IMG/VR virus record: IMGVR_UViG_3300037329_000068
Location: 1-63,999 of that record
Length of the DNA: 63,999 nt
Source: a virus
Taxonomy: Duplodnaviria; Caudoviricetes
Strand: one strand, 5' to 3'
The notes beneath the pieces are model-generated. The model was not told the DNA's origin and did not search any database. It worked only from the letters and a program-made list of their open reading frames with translations. This document shows positions 2,542 through 40,214 of this stretch, piece by piece (the stretch's first letter is position 1; every line of letters starts with the position of its first letter). The position numbers and the translations under genes are program-made.

Positions 2542-2925
2542 TTAAAAATTAATGCTTAATTGTTGTTCTTCTAATGTATTTATAACAGAATAAAAAATAT
2601 TTATGGTGATTGTATTGGGTGTGTTGTTCGGAGTGAAAACTTCAACCTCAATAATATCAACTTGTGGTTCAAAGTTTTCAATAGATCGAATAACATTCTG
2701 ACGCATACCCTGCAAAAATACATCACCTACATTATTTTCAAACAAAGAAGATTTTACGTTCGTTCCATACTCTACAAAATAGCCACGTTCGTAAAAATTA
2801 GTGAGTACAATGTTTCGAAGTGACTGATTGATTGCAGCTACACCAGATTTAGTTGCAAGATCACCAGTTAATGGATGAACAGTAAAAGAAAGGTCTATGT
2901 CTTTTCGTGAGTTTTTAAAAATCAT
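2542..2925 (-). CDS. Baseplate wedge/sheath initiator gp25
   Basis: DIDLSFTVHPLTGDL, AINQSLRNIVLT..ER, IENFEP; start moved to MIFKNS. Confidence 0.9.
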   Translation of the reverse strand: MIFKNSRKDIDLSFTVHPLTGDLATKSGVAAINQSLRNIVLTNFYERGYFVEYGTNVKSSLFENNVGDVFLQGMRQNVIRSIENFEPQVDIIEVEVFTPNNTPNTITINIFYSVINTLEEQQLSINF

Positions 2926-2930
2926 TATTA

Positions 2931-3221
2931 TTATCCTGAAAAAACATTTTGTGAACCTTCTGCCACCACTGAACCACATCCGATGGAATCACCGATTCTG
3001 CCCATGGCTTTACCATTTACAAAAACAGATGAAGAACCACTTGACAATGATGAAACATGACATTCACCTTTTGGCGAACAATGCCCACTGTAAGAATCAC
3101 CAAACCTTTGCACACCGATCCCATTTACAAAAACATCAGAACTCGCCTGTGCGTTTGGTCTAGGTGGAAAACTTTGATGACCAGAACACAAGCCACCGAA
3201 TAATGCTACAGGTTGTGTCAT
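2931..3221 (-). CDS. PAAR-domain spike tip protein (gp5.4-like)
   Basis: GH..FPPRP, VFVNG..V.RFGD, GSSSVFVNGK.MGRIGD...CG repeats. Confidence 0.92.
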   Translation of the reverse strand: MTQPVALFGGLCSGHQSFPPRPNAQASSDVFVNGIGVQRFGDSYSGHCSPKGECHVSSLSSGSSSVFVNGKAMGRIGDSIGCGSVVAEGSQNVFSG

Positions 3222-3724
3222 TGTATCTCGCTTGCTAGTTTTTTGATTGCAATGTTAGCTGAATCCCATCTGATCGTAACTTCTAGTGTAAAAGTTCTCT
3301 CAACTAAAAGATTATCGTCTTCGGCATCATTAGAAAAGACTCTCCACATATAGTATTTATACTCTTCGCTGCTAGGTATTAACTTATGAACTTTAGCACC
3401 AAAAGGAATATCAGATATATTATCAACAGTTCTTGATTCGCCATCAACAGAATAAGCCATGTCTATAAAGTCAGCTTGTGCGTTAACATCACCCGATATA
3501 TTGATTTCTGTTCCAGTATCATAAACAGAAACCGTTTCTGGAAGCTCTTCAAGCCTTTGTTCTTCATTTATAACTGGTTCATAGAAAACAACTAATTTGG
3601 TTCTAGTTTCCAATTCTGTAATAGGATCAATTTCAATACGCTCTACAAAGATTGTGAATGAAATAGAATCACCAGAACCAATTGTTCCAATTTGTGCTAT
3701 GTGTGACCACTCATATTCAAACAT
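3218..3724 (-). CDS. Baseplate-associated protein in the gp5.1 position
   Basis: 168 aa acidic ORF coupled between gp5 and PAAR. Confidence 0.5.
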   Translation of the reverse strand: MFEYEWSHIAQIGTIGSGDSISFTIFVERIEIDPITELETRTKLVVFYEPVINEEQRLEELPETVSVYDTGTEINISGDVNAQADFIDMAYSVDGESRTVDNISDIPFGAKVHKLIPSSEEYKYYMWRVFSNDAEDDNLLVERTFTLEVTIRWDSANIAIKKLASEIQ

Positions 3725-5240: not shown

Positions 5241-6436
5241 TTACCAACCTCAAATGCGTCTTTAACTAATTTCATAGTTTGTGTATATTGAGTTCTTTTT
5301 AATGTGTGTTTTATTTCAGCTACAAGAAATTTACCAGAAAATGGGTCTGGGATTTTTCCTTTGTTGGCATCTTTACCCCATACTGGCAAATTACACAGAA
5401 TAATACTTCCACACACATTGTGTGTATCACCAAACACGGTTATTCTTGCCGCATATCTTTGTGTGTTTAAAATTGTATTGATGTTTTTTAACCTAAAATT
5501 CTGAAAAGGTTTTTGAAAGTCATCAACATAAGTATATAGCTTGTCAGTATTTCTATTATTTACAAGCTCGTTATTAAGATTTGCACTTTTTGCTAAAGAA
5601 TTTTTTTTATCAAACTCACTTACATTGTCGTATTTGCTTTTGTAAAATCTTTTTTCGAGCAAATTTAAATTTGTGCTACTTGAACCCAGCACACCGTCAT
5701 CTATTTGTTGCATAAAATCAGGAACATCAATAACAGAATAATCTTGAATAGACGAAAATGATTCTTCTTCTTTTTTTAAAACGTTGTCATAAATGTTGGC
5801 TGTCTTATATTTGTATTGTGCTAATGGTTCTTGTTTGTACAAGTATTCAATAGGAAAATAACAAAACTGTTGATTATTTTCAAAGTAAAGGTAACCAGAT
5901 TCATTATTGACCGACATAGAACGGCGGGACAAATTAGCAATAACCTGAATTGGATTTTGATTAGCTCCCACAAAATGATTAATTTCTTTTGTTTCTATAC
6001 TTAACAGCTTTTTAGTTGAAATTTTTTCATGAAGAAGTTTTACAATATTCGAACAAACATCATTATATGATTTAGTAACTCGTGTTCTTGAATTGTTAAT
6101 AATTTCATCAGAGCAAAAATTTAAAAGTAACCCCGATGTGTGTTCGTTGATTCGCGCTGGTGGTGAACACTTATAAACAATTCCACTAACCGAAATTTCT
6201 TTTTTGGTTCCTGCTGTTTCAAATACAATTTCAACACGCTCTCCATTTCCTAAAAAGTTTTCATTGTAAAGTGAATTTGTATCCATAATTGTAATGTTTC
6301 CAGACATACCAACGCTGAACATTGATTCGTAGATAGAAACATCCATGAACAAAGGAATTAAGTTATAAGCAACTCCATCATCAAATTGCAGTTCTAGCTT
6401 TTTAAGAATATAGGAGCCATTCTGTGTGTACTTCAT
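5237..6436 (-). CDS. Baseplate hub protein (gp27-like)
   Basis: SIYESMF...MSGNITIMD, G.ERV.I.F, YLYFEN, SGKFLV.EIKH; next to gp5. Confidence 0.7.
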   Translation of the reverse strand: MKYTQNGSYILKKLELQFDDGVAYNLIPLFMDVSIYESMFSVGMSGNITIMDTNSLYNENFLGNGERVEIVFETAGTKKEISVSGIVYKCSPPARINEHTSGLLLNFCSDEIINNSRTRVTKSYNDVCSNIVKLLHEKISTKKLLSIETKEINHFVGANQNPIQVIANLSRRSMSVNNESGYLYFENNQQFCYFPIEYLYKQEPLAQYKYKTANIYDNVLKKEEESFSSIQDYSVIDVPDFMQQIDDGVLGSSSTNLNLLEKRFYKSKYDNVSEFDKKNSLAKSANLNNELVNNRNTDKLYTYVDDFQKPFQNFRLKNINTILNTQRYAARITVFGDTHNVCGSIILCNLPVWGKDANKGKIPDPFSGKFLVAEIKHTLKRTQYTQTMKLVKDAFEVGK

Positions 6437-11366: not shown

Positions 11367-11443
11367 GGGCCTATACCATAGCGGTCTAATGGAGCGTACT
11401 CATAATGCGTTATACTCGTGTTCGAATCACGGTAGGCCCACCA
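11367..11443 (+). tRNA. tRNA with CAT anticodon (Ile2 likely; Met possible)
   Basis: GGGCCTA/TAGGCCC acceptor, CT-CAT-AA loop, GTTCGAATC T-loop, encoded CCA. Confidence 0.9.
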
Positions 11444-15364: not shown

Positions 15365-16351
15365 ATGGAACAGGAACTTTTTAGCTTTGGCTCTGTTGAG
15401 TCTCTTCACAATAAAGTAAAGGTAGCCCATCGTTACCCAGAACCAGAACGGATGTTTTTTGCCAAGCCTAAGCTTCACGGAACAAACGCAAGCATTGTTT
15501 TCAAAGCTCGTGGAATAGTCTACGCACAATCCCGTAAGAATGTCTTGACGCTCGAAAACGACAATGCTGGATTTGCTCGTTGGGTTTCTGAACTAAATTT
15601 TAAAGATTTTGTTTTTGACGGTATGACATGGATTCTTTACGGTGAATGGGCTGGCCAAGGCATTGGGAAAAATGATGCAGTGACTAAAATCGGAAAGAAA
15701 GCATTTTTCCCAATTTGCCTCCGTCGCATCTATAGTGATGATAGACTTGATCGTATAGATCATGAAGAGTATCTTATTAAATCTGGTCTTGAGAATATGG
15801 GAATTGTTGATCACCCAGACATCTACATCATCCCGAAAATCGGAGAAATTAGCATTTGTCTTAACGGAAACTTTGTTCACCTAGCAAAAGTAGAAACCTA
15901 TGTAAACACAATGGTAGAAAATTTTGAAACGGTTGATCCTTACATTCAAAAACAATTTGGGGTTGAAGCCGCTGGCGAAGGTGTGGTATTCTACCCAGAC
16001 ACCCATGATTGGGAAACATATAAGAATTTAATGTTCAAGGCTAAGACAGAAGCACATAGGGTGAACAAGTCAAATTCTGCGGCAAGTGCGAAAGTTGAAG
16101 TAAGTCATTACGTAGTAGAATTTGCAGAGAAGTTTGCAACAATTCAGCGATTTGAACAAGCGATGACAGAAATAAACACTGGATTTGATATGAAATCTAT
16201 GGGACAATTCTTGAAGTGGGTTAATACTGATATTTTAAAAGAAAGCAAAGATGAGATCGAAGAATCCGAACTTAACTGGAAAGAGTGTGCTAAAGAAATT
16301 ACAAACGTGAGCCGTGGTTGGTTCATGAACAACGCAAAGAGGATTACATAA
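15365..16351 (+). CDS. RNA ligase, Rnl2-like
   Basis: KLHGTNA (motif I), QSR, DNAGFA, LYGEWAG.GI, EGVV, FKAK. Confidence 0.85.
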   Translation: MEQELFSFGSVESLHNKVKVAHRYPEPERMFFAKPKLHGTNASIVFKARGIVYAQSRKNVLTLENDNAGFARWVSELNFKDFVFDGMTWILYGEWAGQGIGKNDAVTKIGKKAFFPICLRRIYSDDRLDRIDHEEYLIKSGLENMGIVDHPDIYIIPKIGEISICLNGNFVHLAKVETYVNTMVENFETVDPYIQKQFGVEAAGEGVVFYPDTHDWETYKNLMFKAKTEAHRVNKSNSAASAKVEVSHYVVEFAEKFATIQRFEQAMTEINTGFDMKSMGQFLKWVNTDILKESKDEIEESELNWKECAKEITNVSRGWFMNNAKRIT

Positions 16352-25137: not shown

Positions 25138-25215
25138 CGGGAATTAGCTCAGTCTGGTTAGAGCACTTCGTTTGGGGCGTAGTTGTCGCAGGTTCGAATC
25201 CTGCATTCCCGACCA
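25138..25215 (+). tRNA. tRNA-Pro (TGG)
   Basis: CGGGAAT/ATTCCCG acceptor, TAGCTCAG..GG D-arm, TT-TGG-GG loop, GGTTCGAATCC, CCA; one T:T mismatch in anticodon stem. Confidence 0.92.
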
Positions 25216-38148: not shown

Positions 38149-38565
38149 ATGTTTGCACTCATCAAAGCAATTCCACTGATGATGAAGTCTGCAAAGTTTT
38201 GGATAATCGCGGCCCTTGTATCAAGTTTAGTATCTGGTGTCGTATGGGTGGCATACGACTATAGGAAGACGTTACAAGAGCTTGCGATTTCAGAACAACG
38301 TGTTGACAATTTACAAAGTCAGTTATCAGTTGTTAATGAAAGAATTAAAAAAGAACGCGACAGAACACAAAGTCTTCGAAGTGATAATTCAAAAATAACC
38401 TCTCAATACTTATCTAAGATTCGAGAACTTCAAGAACTAAAAGAAAACTATCAGATGCTAAAGGACAAACCCAACGAGGCCGCATTAAAAATCGAATCAT
38501 CGTTTAACACGTTTATGAATGACATGTCATGCATTACAGGCGAAACTTCTCAATGTCCAAAATAA
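38149..38565 (+). CDS. Inner-membrane spanin (Rz-like)
   Basis: One N-terminal TM, long coiled coil, C-terminal Cys. Confidence 0.75.
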   Translation: MFALIKAIPLMMKSAKFWIIAALVSSLVSGVVWVAYDYRKTLQELAISEQRVDNLQSQLSVVNERIKKERDRTQSLRSDNSKITSQYLSKIRELQELKENYQMLKDKPNEAALKIESSFNTFMNDMSCITGETSQCPK

Positions 38566-38906
38566 TTCTATCAGTTATATTTTGTGTTGTTCTTTCGGGT
38601 TGTGCGTCAACACCAGCAGACATCTCATTCAACGAAACATTTTCTCACCCAGAGCTACCGAATCCTGTGCAGCCGTATAATTTTGACTTTTACGTGGTGA
38701 CAGAAGACAATGTAGAAGAATTTATTAATCAGCCAAAAGTTTTTGTTGCTATTGAGTATCAACAAACTCTACAATTCAGACAATTTCTTGAAGATATGAA
38801 ACGATTTATGCTTGAAGCCAATGGTGTGATCTGCTACTATAGGGAGAACTTGAAAGAGCAATTTTGCAAAAACCAACAAAGGTACTTGAATCGTGAAAAA
38901 GATTAA
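38553..38906 (+). CDS. Outer-membrane spanin lipoprotein (Rz1-like)
   Basis: Signal peptide with LSGC lipobox, Pro-rich stretch, ICYYR; overlaps i-spanin. Confidence 0.8.
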   Translation: MSKIILSVIFCVVLSGCASTPADISFNETFSHPELPNPVQPYNFDFYVVTEDNVEEFINQPKVFVAIEYQQTLQFRQFLEDMKRFMLEANGVICYYRENLKEQFCKNQQRYLNREKD

Positions 38907-38957: not shown

Positions 38958-39389
38958 ATGACTTACGTTGATAAAGGACTAACTCTACCGGAAGTATTTA
39001 AAAGAGTTGCAGAAAAAGAAACAATTGAAGAAAAAGCAAAACTGTTGAAATTGTACGAAACAAAAAGCTTGCGTTGGTTTATTGACTCGTTGTATAATCG
39101 TGACTTATCTGATATTGCAATTCCACAATACAAAGTTTCTGTTAATCCATCTGGTATTGCTTTCATGAACATCAACAATTCTATTAGCAGAATTGAAGCA
39201 GCCATCAGTAATAAAGACAAACCACAAATTTTAAATCGTAATTTGACATTGGTTCTAGAGGGAGTCACTTCTGATGAAGCGATTCTTATTGAAAAAATAT
39301 TAAAAGGCGAACGCAGAATTAATGGCGTATCGAAAACGGTTTTTAAGAAGGCATACCCTGAATTTTTTCGTACTGAGGAAGAGGTTTAA
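38958..39389 (+). CDS. Conserved T4-superfamily hypothetical protein
   Basis: EVFKRV...EEKAKLL, LEGV..DEA.L, V.KKAYP. Confidence 0.7.
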   Translation: MTYVDKGLTLPEVFKRVAEKETIEEKAKLLKLYETKSLRWFIDSLYNRDLSDIAIPQYKVSVNPSGIAFMNINNSISRIEAAISNKDKPQILNRNLTLVLEGVTSDEAILIEKILKGERRINGVSKTVFKKAYPEFFRTEEEV

Positions 39390-39429: not shown

Positions 39430-39457
39430 AAACCCCATTCATCCGTTTGGGGTTTTC
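39430..39457 (+). terminator. Hairpin/terminator upstream of arfA
   Basis: AAACCCCA...TGGGGTTTT. Confidence 0.6.
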
Positions 39458-39475: not shown

Positions 39476-39658
39476 ATGTCGTTTCAACATGATAAAGGAA
39501 AAATAAAACACAATGCGTTGGCAGCATTGGTAACATCTAATGCTTTTTTACCAAAGAAAGAAAAAATCAAAAAAGGCAAAGGATCATACAACCGAAACAA
39601 TAAGCACAAATCAGACTACTCACATAATCGCATTTTCAAAATGTTATTTTGTAAGTAG
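39476..39658 (+). CDS. arfA: Alternative ribosome-rescue factor A homologue
   Basis: MSFQHDKGKIKHNALAALVTSNAFLPKKEKIKKGKGSYNRNNKH aligns by eye with E. coli ArfA (QH.KG.IK.NA..AL, F, EK.KKGKGSY.R..KH). Confidence 0.9.
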   Translation: MSFQHDKGKIKHNALAALVTSNAFLPKKEKIKKGKGSYNRNNKHKSDYSHNRIFKMLFCK

Positions 39659-39668
39659 TCTTTTTTTT
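39613..39668 (+). terminator. Long hairpin spanning the arfA stop codon, followed by a U-tract
   Basis: AGACTACT..ACA..CATTT-tca-AAATG..TGT.AGTAGTCT + TTTTTTT. Confidence 0.7.
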
Positions 39669-39695
39669 ATTGTAGGACTACACAAAGAGAATCAT

Positions 39696-40214
39696 ATGGA
39701 AACCATAAGCAAAAAACCAGTAAGAATAGTGTTTCTTGACATATCAGGCGTTTTAGCCACACACAGAGTTGAATTTTCAAGACTTGAAAGAGGGTGTTTT
39801 GGAGACTTTGACCCCGTTATAGTAAAGTTCTTAGAGTCTGTGTGTAGCAAGTATTTGTGTTATATTGTTATCACTTCAAGAAAAAGAAAGTTATTTAATG
39901 ATGTTGAATTTTTTAAATCAAAGATGATAAAATGGGGAGGCGGAGACTTGATAGATTTTTTGTTTCCTGATGATGATCTTTGGAGGACAACAGAAGAAAG
40001 CTTTAACAATAAGTCATTAGAAATTAATAATTGGATTAAAAAATTTAAAGAAAAATACAAACATAAATTTTATATTGACAATTATGCTATAATAGACGAT
40101 GATTCTTTGGGTTCTGAATTACACGACGATCATTTTGTTCTTGTCAAAAATAAACAGAATGGAATGGGTTGTGAAGAATATAGAAAATTAATTAAAATAC
40201 TCAACAACGGATAA
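39696..40214 (+). CDS. HAD-family phosphatase-like protein (RNA-repair Swiss-Army-Knife type), degenerate motif I
   Basis: IVFLDISGVL, IVITS, EINNW, YAIIDDD. Confidence 0.7.
   Translation: METISKKPVRIVFLDISGVLATHRVEFSRLERGCFGDFDPVIVKFLESVCSKYLCYIVITSRKRKLFNDVEFFKSKMIKWGGGDLIDFLFPDDDLWRTTEESFNNKSLEINNWIKKFKEKYKHKFYIDNYAIIDDDSLGSELHDDHFVLVKNKQNGMGCEEYRKLIKILNNG

Follow-up and report, generated by a model that had tools for sequence, protein, structure and literature searches.

Can a phage encode its own copy of the ribosome rescue factor ArfA, and is such a copy still subject to the control that governs arfA in bacteria? The question is raised by a 60-codon open reading frame (ORF; 39476..39658, + strand, from an ATG start to a TAG stop) in the IMG/VR virus record IMGVR_UViG_3300037329_000068, whose 63,999 bases were analysed as a whole and are referred to here as the window. 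An earlier note had read this ORF as an ArfA with which the phage recycles jammed ribosomes independently of transfer-messenger RNA (tmRNA). Our analysis agrees with the identification and suggests that the ORF is probably a functional, phage-borne arfA, whose product is predicted from its sequence to support release factor 2 (RF2)-dependent release on non-stop ribosomes; the independence from tmRNA, however, is doubtful. Until now ArfA has been regarded as a housekeeping back-up found only in some beta- and gammaproteobacteria, and these two classes are the range given for the family in a review.

The 60-residue product of the ORF (MSFQHDKGKIKHNALAALVTSNAFLPKKEKIKKGKGSYNRNNKHKSDYSHNRIFKMLFCK) is recognised as ArfA by several searches. 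It matches Pfam family PF03889 (ArfA) with 65.9 bits, far above the curated cut-off of 25.5 (E 2.2e-18), and the match extends from residue 3 to residue 45 of the ORF on positions 2-44 of the 44-position model. A six-frame hidden Markov model (HMM) search of the record gives an ArfA match of 65.1 bits. Among the PDB sequences, phmmer finds six distinct chains of Escherichia coli ArfA (5U4I, 7OJ0, 5MDV, 5MGP, 5H5U and 5MDW; E 8e-9 to 4e-8), and the alignment, which has no gaps and takes in KKGKGSY, pairs residue n of the query with E. coli residue n+1; by hand count from the alignment midline, 23 of the 43 positions are identical. The small size of the protein and its basic carboxy-terminal segment (KGKGS followed by KH) are those of the family. 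The motif string by which the ORF had first been recognised also fits overall, except that two of its spacers were one residue short (there are five residues, not four, between AL and F, and four, not three, between F and EK). In an exhaustive protein search, 113 representative proteins match at E <= 1e-3, and the six of these that were scanned carry the ArfA domain, the ones named being P0001 (from precomputed Pfam assignments), P0005, P0007, P0009 and P0010. A chance ORF was rejected on the Pfam match, the PDB matches and the substitution pattern described below. An overlapping long frame (39540-40214) was also rejected as the real gene at this place, since its Pfam domain and conserved start begin at 39696.

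No NCBIfam model matches the product, and its matches in the PHROGs collection, to families of unknown function, are all weak (E 0.02-0.03); phage copies of arfA are therefore routinely missed.

The residues on which rescue depends in E. coli are largely conserved in the phage protein. Reviews of E. coli ArfA place a short helix of residues 15-24 at the decoding centre and the C-terminus, including the KH motif, in the mRNA channel. Both F25 and the strand Q27-E30 are described as touching RF2, and the strand pairs with the sheet of RF2 domains II/IV. The reviews also report that the A18T substitution retains ribosome binding and RF2 recruitment and abolishes RF2 activation. The amino-terminal half of the phage protein (codons 3-26; 39482..39553, + strand), whose E. 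coli counterpart contacts the decoding centre and activates RF2, contains A17 and F24, which align to E. coli A18 and F25. The following segment (codons 27-45; 39554..39610, + strand) comprises the strand position PKKE and the basic tail KIKKGKGSYNRNNKHK, and its E. coli counterpart fills the empty mRNA channel by way of KGKGS and KH; here K32-K33-G34-K35-G36-S37 and K43-H44 align to E. coli K33-S38 and K44-H45. Across an alignment of 22 sequences, G8, A17, K33, G34, G36 and R40 are invariant and A14, V19, S21, K35, S37 and K43 nearly so.

Homology to E. coli ArfA predicts that the phage protein binds ribosomes and recruits RF2. Its basic carboxy-terminal half (KKGKGSYNRNNKH) would enter the mRNA entry channel of the host 70S ribosome, a channel that would be empty only once the ribosome has reached the 3' end of a truncated message. 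The amino-terminal half (HDKGKIKHNALAALVTSNAF) would bring in host RF2 and lock it in its open form, upon which the GGQ loop of RF2 would cleave the peptidyl-tRNA and leave the ribosome free for recycling. The phage may gain by keeping ribosome capacity while mRNAs are being cut, either through phage-induced decay of host mRNA or by host defence RNases, and this purpose, which the earlier note had put forward, is plausible.

The window is a fragment of a T4-related myovirus (CheckV completeness 40%). Nine of its ten large ORFs tested match PHROGs families, which include baseplate wedge, baseplate hub/tail lysozyme, tail protein, RIIA, RIIB, primase, A1-like DNA transfer protein and ATP-dependent DNA ligase. 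The baseplate, rII, primase, ligase and spanin genes in this IMG/VR virus record bear out the residence of arfA in a phage. The gene thus lies in a virus and its nearest cellular relatives are gammaproteobacterial; the virus location widens the range of the ArfA family and is no failure of homology.

Two further viral contigs and four metagenome contigs carry close relatives of the gene (96% amino acid identity over residues 1-53), and a more distant ArfA (locus L114) is 74% identical. Comparison with four of the close relatives reveals 8-10 synonymous and 2 non-synonymous differences, corresponding to a ratio of non-synonymous to synonymous divergence (pN/pS) of 0.05-0.06; against L114 the ratio is 0.09 (pS 0.91, pN 0.08). 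With pN/pS at 0.05-0.09, the window arfA is under purifying selection and is maintained in the phage. One close relative, on a metagenome contig (L110, around position 3110), has lost one nucleotide from the A-rich run before KGKGS, so that arfA continues in the reading frame of the gene downstream (protein P0006). The frameshift is either a homopolymer assembly error or the mark of a decaying copy.

The genomic position of arfA is also shared among phages. Directly upstream in the window is a 143-residue protein of unknown function that belongs to phrog_461 (38958..39389, + strand; E 1.5e-11), and this protein serves as the syntenic anchor of phage arfA: a homologue lies directly upstream of arfA in L007, L008, L009, L013/L014, L114 and the cultured Pseudomonas phage pf16. 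The identity of these homologues to the window protein is 29-40% for L007, L008, L009 and L013/L014, 42% for pf16 and 74% for L114. A T4-type tail gene (phrog_350) is present in L007, L008, L009 and L014 as well as in the window, and the HMM search finds ArfA in all five related or other viral records tested, pf16 included. The phage lineage has retained arfA over the long term.

A phylogenetic tree was built from 46 columns and leaves 42 of its 82 inner branches open, and it was used for the clade of the window, L002 and L114 and for the placement of L010. The tree places the window, L002 and L114 together in a supported clade (97 in the Shimodaira-Hasegawa-like approximate likelihood ratio test, SH-aLRT) apart from every bacterial group in the tree, and this clade groups loosely (81) with L007, L008, L009, L013 and one Vibrionaceae sequence. 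Of the other viral loci, L012 falls inside a Pseudoalteromonas group, and L011, L015 and L016 lie near Enterobacterales and Pasteurellaceae. L010, which derives from a prophage call in an isolate genome, falls inside Neisseriaceae and is possibly a host gene. Among bacterial ArfAs, the nearest are those of Pseudoalteromonas, Alishewanella, Rheinheimera and Vibrio, mostly at 47-64% identity and none above 68%, and these genera fit an aquatic gammaproteobacterial host for the phage.

An alignment-driven scan of IMG/VR confirmed at least 20 loci. When these are pooled with the relatives found earlier and with the window's own gene, there are at least 24 viral ArfA ORFs. At least 13 of the viral ORFs are full-length ArfAs (49-80 residues) and at least 11 are short forms (35-58 residues) without the N-terminal segment. 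The short forms (L017-L025, L004 and L005, with L006 4308-4490, which is g10 of Citromicrobium phage RXM, as a further example) typically read xNPIAxxL...KPKKGKGS[FY]xR, and the nine that were scanned (L004, L017-L022, L024 and L025) all pass the Pfam cut-off (25.9-39.7 bits). Related PHROGs families (phrog_37108 and phrog_20887) are labelled as of unknown function. One short form (L022) has a lysine at the position of E. coli A18, as read from the model coordinates. Judging from their sequences, the short forms may work differently.

How expression of the window gene is controlled is suggested by its 3' end. An imperfect 20-bp RNA hairpin with three 1x1 mismatches (39613..39661, + strand) takes in codons 46-60 together with the stop codon, the latter being located in its 3' arm. 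Folded alone, the hairpin has 20 pairs and -16.5 kcal/mol; its 111-nucleotide context reaches -22.4 kcal/mol with a z score of -3.47, and none of 200 shuffles is as good. Right after the hairpin comes a run of seven U (39662..39668, + strand; tail UUUUUUUAUU), which makes it terminator-like. L002 forms its 20-bp hairpin in another register (z -3.26), and there a 1-nucleotide indel brings the stop codon into the apical loop and shortens the ORF to 54 residues; the hairpin of L107 contains a perfect run of 16 bp. The hairpin of L114 differs in sequence and has 26 bp (-30.2 kcal/mol, z -5.80), again with the stop codon in the loop. The U run is found in the L002 group too, and is missing from L114. 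An Rfam match to the region was set aside, as it is a sub-threshold hit shaped like a miRNA precursor on both strands (26.9 bits against a gathering threshold of 67) and is meaningless beyond the hairpin shape.

For comparison, the strongest hairpin within 200 nucleotides after the GKGS codon was located in 80 bacterial arfA loci. Its median start and end lie 36 and 92 nucleotides after that codon, and its median energy is -26.9 kcal/mol; it lies wholly before the stop codon in 43 loci, spans it in 35 and follows it in two. The window hairpin extends from 38 to 87 on the same scale, with the stop at 81, and so sits where a bacterial arfA hairpin is expected. In L002 the hairpin extends from 39 to 87 and the stop is at 63, which is exactly the stop position of the Pseudoalteromonas/Vibrio type.

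An -AA ending (KAA, MAA or IAA) is common among the ArfAs with the stop codon in the hairpin loop, as in bacterial loci L026, L028, L046 and L069, in L114 (2107-2277) and in proteins P0005, P0018 and P0026. These endings resemble the end of the SsrA tag, and the -AA ending may be a built-in degron of the full-length ArfA product.

According to reviews, the hairpin of bacterial arfA is a target of RNase III or a premature terminator, so that no stop codon is present in the mRNA of arfA, and ArfA is SsrA-tagged and degraded while trans-translation works, the active peptide having 53-55 residues. By analogy, cleavage or termination at the hairpin of the phage gene would yield a non-stop arfA mRNA, whose product would be tagged and degraded as long as trans-translation has spare capacity; once trans-translation is saturated, an active ArfA peptide of about 46-55 residues would accumulate. 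The window gene retains the 3' hairpin that puts bacterial arfA mRNA under tmRNA control, which is what makes the independence from tmRNA claimed for it doubtful. Since the 20-bp hairpin in which the gene ends has the placement seen in bacterial arfA, expression of the gene may well be coupled to tmRNA, and L114, which keeps the hairpin without the U run, tips the balance slightly in that direction; overall, we consider continued coupling through the hairpin to be close to an even call that leans towards coupling. RNA cleavage and the coupling itself are predictions from bacterial arfA, and the benefit to the phage is putative. A full-length phage ArfA that is kept by selection together with a regulatory hairpin suggests that stalling on truncated mRNA limits phage growth enough for a dedicated gene. 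Phage copies come both with and without the hairpin and therefore provide a natural experiment on the tmRNA-ArfA circuit.

Several observations weigh against a functional arfA that is controlled in this way. At the level of the RNA, termination at the U run would leave the stop codon inside the transcript, so that the mRNA may be an ordinary one that retains its stop. The hairpin shows weak covariation: RNAalifold on six members of the clade finds one compensatory pair in 19 and an unfavourable covariation term, and covariation support is accordingly not claimed, the sequences being too close or poorly alignable. L007, L009, L013 and pf16 have no significant hairpin at the end of the ORF (z +0.47 to -1.5), so phage arfA does not in general depend on the hairpin; in L008 and L016 there is just a short terminator-like stem that ends at the stop codon. 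Upstream of the gene, a terminator-like hairpin (AAACCCCA...UGGGGUUU; 39430..39455, + strand; -12.5 kcal/mol, z only -1.10) ends 20 nucleotides before the arfA start and leaves just those 20 nucleotides for an arfA promoter. This upstream hairpin is kept in seven close relatives and was not called by the terminator scan. Promoter scans revealed no convincing arfA promoter, with counts near the shuffled expectation (11 against 6.7, and 18 against 15.3), and among the sequencing runs none of RNA contains the arfA region, while two of DNA do. At the level of the protein, the RF2-contacting strand reads PKKE (P26-K27-K28-E29) where E. coli has QRVE, in a stretch that is variable among homologues. 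A complex predicted for residues 1-46 of the window ArfA with E. coli RF2 scored 0.10 against a mark of 0.32, which counts neither for nor against the RF2 interaction. In the literature searched, we found no biochemical or genetic study of any phage ArfA.

The strongest alternative leaves the function of the protein unchanged and concerns its expression. The hairpin and U run could act as an intrinsic terminator or 3' stabiliser, the stop codon would be kept and the phage would flood the cell with active ArfA whatever the tmRNA status, which is the version favoured in the earlier note. We regard such constitutive, tmRNA-independent expression as having somewhat less than an even chance. In the window and the L002 group the hairpin is followed by 7-8 U, and a transcript that ends in the U run retains the stop codon, be it in the loop (L002) or in the 3' arm (window). 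In L114, however, the hairpin is stronger (26 bp, z -5.8) and lacks the U run, and is not a terminator there. The stem is also long, AU-rich and mismatched, like bacterial arfA hairpins and unlike a GC-rich terminator, and the terminator scan gave no call. A stop codon inside the hairpin does not set the phage gene apart either, as it is found in 35 of the 80 bacterial loci. Constitutive expression is further suggested by the phage copies that lack a significant hairpin (L007, L009, L013 and pf16), which are 47-50 residues long and have real stop codons, and by the loss of the C-terminal -AA from the window/L002 clade, which ends RIF... where L114, like many bacterial ArfAs that keep -AA, ends RIAA. 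The full ORF of L002 and its relatives, at 54 residues, has the length of the active truncated E. coli protein (53-55 residues, as given in a review).

A second alternative, which we consider improbable, is that the phage protein serves mainly to antagonise trans-translation. ArfA and SmpB-tmRNA occupy the same empty mRNA channel, and a phage ArfA that fills it could exclude SmpB-tmRNA, so that truncated phage proteins would be released untagged or tmRNA-dependent host responses would be blunted. The two systems share a substrate, the ribosome stalled on non-stop mRNA (reviews), and the related phage pf16 encodes a homologue of SspB, the adaptor for SsrA-tagged proteins, which suggests that the lineage interferes with the tagging pathway. 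A pure blocker, however, would not need the residues for RF2 activation, all of which are conserved, and SspB was not found in the 64-kb window. The weakest alternative, that arfA is a recently captured host gene without a phage role, a passenger or a decaying moron, draws on bacterial ArfAs of 47-64% identity with the same hairpin layout and on the frameshift in L110, and is very improbable in view of the low pN/pS, a genomic position common to phages whose flanking protein is just 29-42% identical, a clade apart from all bacterial groups in the tree (97 SH-aLRT) and the lack of any bacterial ArfA above 68% identity. Both of these alternatives are less likely than a functional rescue ArfA.

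E. coli ArfA (YhdL), solved with RF2 on the ribosome (5U4I, 5MDV, 5H5U, 5MGP and 7OJ0), shares with the window protein the gap-free collinearity over residues 3-45, the small size, KGKGS, KH, the equivalents of A18 and F25, and a hairpin over the 3' end of the ORF. The window gene differs in being phage-borne, in having 60 rather than 72 codons, in the position of the stop codon (within the hairpin, against well downstream in E. coli), in the U run after the hairpin and in PKKE in place of QRVE at the strand. The bacterial relatives with the highest identity (47-64%) are of the Pseudoalteromonas/Vibrio type (L026, L028, L046 and L069); their layout is that of L002, with the stop codon 63 nucleotides after the GKGS codon in the apical part of a 20-28-bp hairpin. 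These bacterial proteins end in -KAA, -MAA or -KVA, whereas the window protein ends in RIFKMLFCK and that of L002 in RIF, and most bacterial arfA hairpins, unlike that of the window, have no U run after them. BrfA and ArfT are likewise small proteins that detect an empty mRNA channel and bring in a release factor. Reviews name these two as rescue factors of Bacillus and Francisella, respectively. They are unrelated to ArfA in sequence, whereas the window protein is a true member of PF03889 and no analogue.

The earlier note knew of no characterised phage ArfA. For biochemistry this holds in the literature searched; ArfA-like genes, on the other hand, have already been annotated in a few phage genomes, one of them with transcript data. 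The g10 gene of Citromicrobium phage RXM is annotated as ArfA-like in its published description, and its product passes the Pfam threshold with 29.6 bits over model positions 12-43, and is thus a short form. According to its authors, gp30 of pelagiphage HTVC027P carries PF03889 and is highly expressed both early and late in infection (PMC12753301). A tblastn search with RXM g10 finds a coding sequence of Brevundimonas phage Kikimora annotated as "alternative ribosome-rescue factor", along with weak matches (E 2e-3 to 0.9) to hypothetical coding sequences of Roseobacter, Erythrobacter, Caulobacter and another Brevundimonas phage. RXM g10, HTVC027P gp30 and the Kikimora gene are alike with the window gene in being phage-encoded and ArfA-like. 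They differ in that their hosts are alphaproteobacterial, and RXM g10 and similar short viral ORFs align chiefly to the middle and the C-terminal part of the model, without the N-terminal segment. What is new here is a full-length ArfA of the gammaproteobacterial type, resident in a T4-related phage lineage and with the bacterial regulatory hairpin kept.

The nearest isolate to the window phage, by the A1-like protein, is Pseudomonas phage pf16 (60% identity); Shewanella, Paraglaciecola, Alishewanella and Vibrio phages come next (44-53%). The genome paper of pf16 describes it as a peripheral T4-like phage. Its ArfA ORF (L151 3622-3765; 47 residues, with a GTG start after TAGGAG) scores 70.9 bits in the HMM search and corresponds to 131796-131915 on the minus strand of NC_041881.1, downstream of the phrog_461 homologue gp200. 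The ORF is unannotated, the record showing at its place a 72-residue hypothetical gene on the opposite strand (gp199), and ArfA has no occurrence in the genome paper. Like the window protein, pf16 ArfA has the full core and the same place downstream of the phrog_461 homologue; it differs in its length, its GTG start and the lack of a significant 3' hairpin. As pf16 is cultured and infects Pseudomonas putida, the hypothesis of a functional phage ArfA is directly testable. Searches for cultured-phage relatives with megablast, and with tblastn at E 1e-2 with the low-complexity filter on, found none. The tblastn search is not a valid negative, as the HMM search later found the pf16 copy. At E 10, the sole tblastn match was a Salmonella genome contig filed among phages, and it was discarded.

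Other parts of the rescue and tagging machinery are encoded by individual phages with arfA. The SspB homologue of pf16 (L159) scores 118.8 bits; the pf16 genome paper, in its discussion of SspB, draws no link to ArfA. L016 is a complete phage genome (CheckV 100%) that has direct terminal repeats and a length of 151,510 bases. It encodes a full RF2 (2564-3592; TIGR00020, 455.7 bits against a cut-off of 370) in which the SPF and GGQ motifs are visible, 2.4 kb upstream of a 52-residue ArfA (6001-6159; Pfam 75.7 bits), so that this phage brings both partners of the rescue pair. L158, which is the 106-kb contig of the ArfA-bearing locus L014, encodes a 127-residue RF-1-domain protein (1345-1728; 36.5 bits) that by eye has GGM where GGQ is expected; the gene adjoins an ORF that resembles, also by eye, an Mre11/gp47-type nuclease.

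A wider and more tentative reading, which we hold to be rather unlikely as a whole, is that the pf16-like T4-related lineage has long carried arfA as part of a take-over of host non-stop rescue and SsrA tagging. The window, L002 and L114 would then keep the tmRNA-sensing hairpin, while pf16, L007 and L013 would have shed it in favour of an always-on, pre-truncated ArfA, and individual phages would add further parts, namely SspB in pf16, a complete RF2 in L016 and the small RF-1-domain protein on the L014 contig. The driver would be the need for translation to survive the shredding of mRNA by host defences or phage nucleases. If this were true, phage ArfA would be a counter-defence factor against immunity of the RNase type or the non-stop-translation type.

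The remaining neighbours of arfA in the window include a gene for a 172-residue HAD phosphatase of the RNA-repair-associated type immediately downstream (39696..40214, + strand; PF18143 HAD_SAK_2, 51 bits against a cut-off of 27.5; phrog_1818). This gene follows arfA only within the window's own clade, L114 included. Upstream of the block formed by phrog_461, arfA and the HAD gene lies an overlapping Rz-like spanin pair (38149-38565 and 38529-38906; phrog_739 and phrog_812). In T4, the spanin genes adjoin pseT, the RNA-repair kinase/phosphatase. Elsewhere in the window, a 328-residue ORF (15365-16351) matches the RNA ligase family PF09414 (Rnl2 type) with 34.8 bits, the match lying at 15461-15679. 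The HAD neighbour and the Rnl2-family ligase fit a phage equipped against RNA damage, adjacency alone being weak evidence. No tmRNA gene was found in the 64-kb window, which contains two tRNA genes, tRNA-Met (CAT; 11367-11443) and tRNA-Pro (TGG; 25138-25215).

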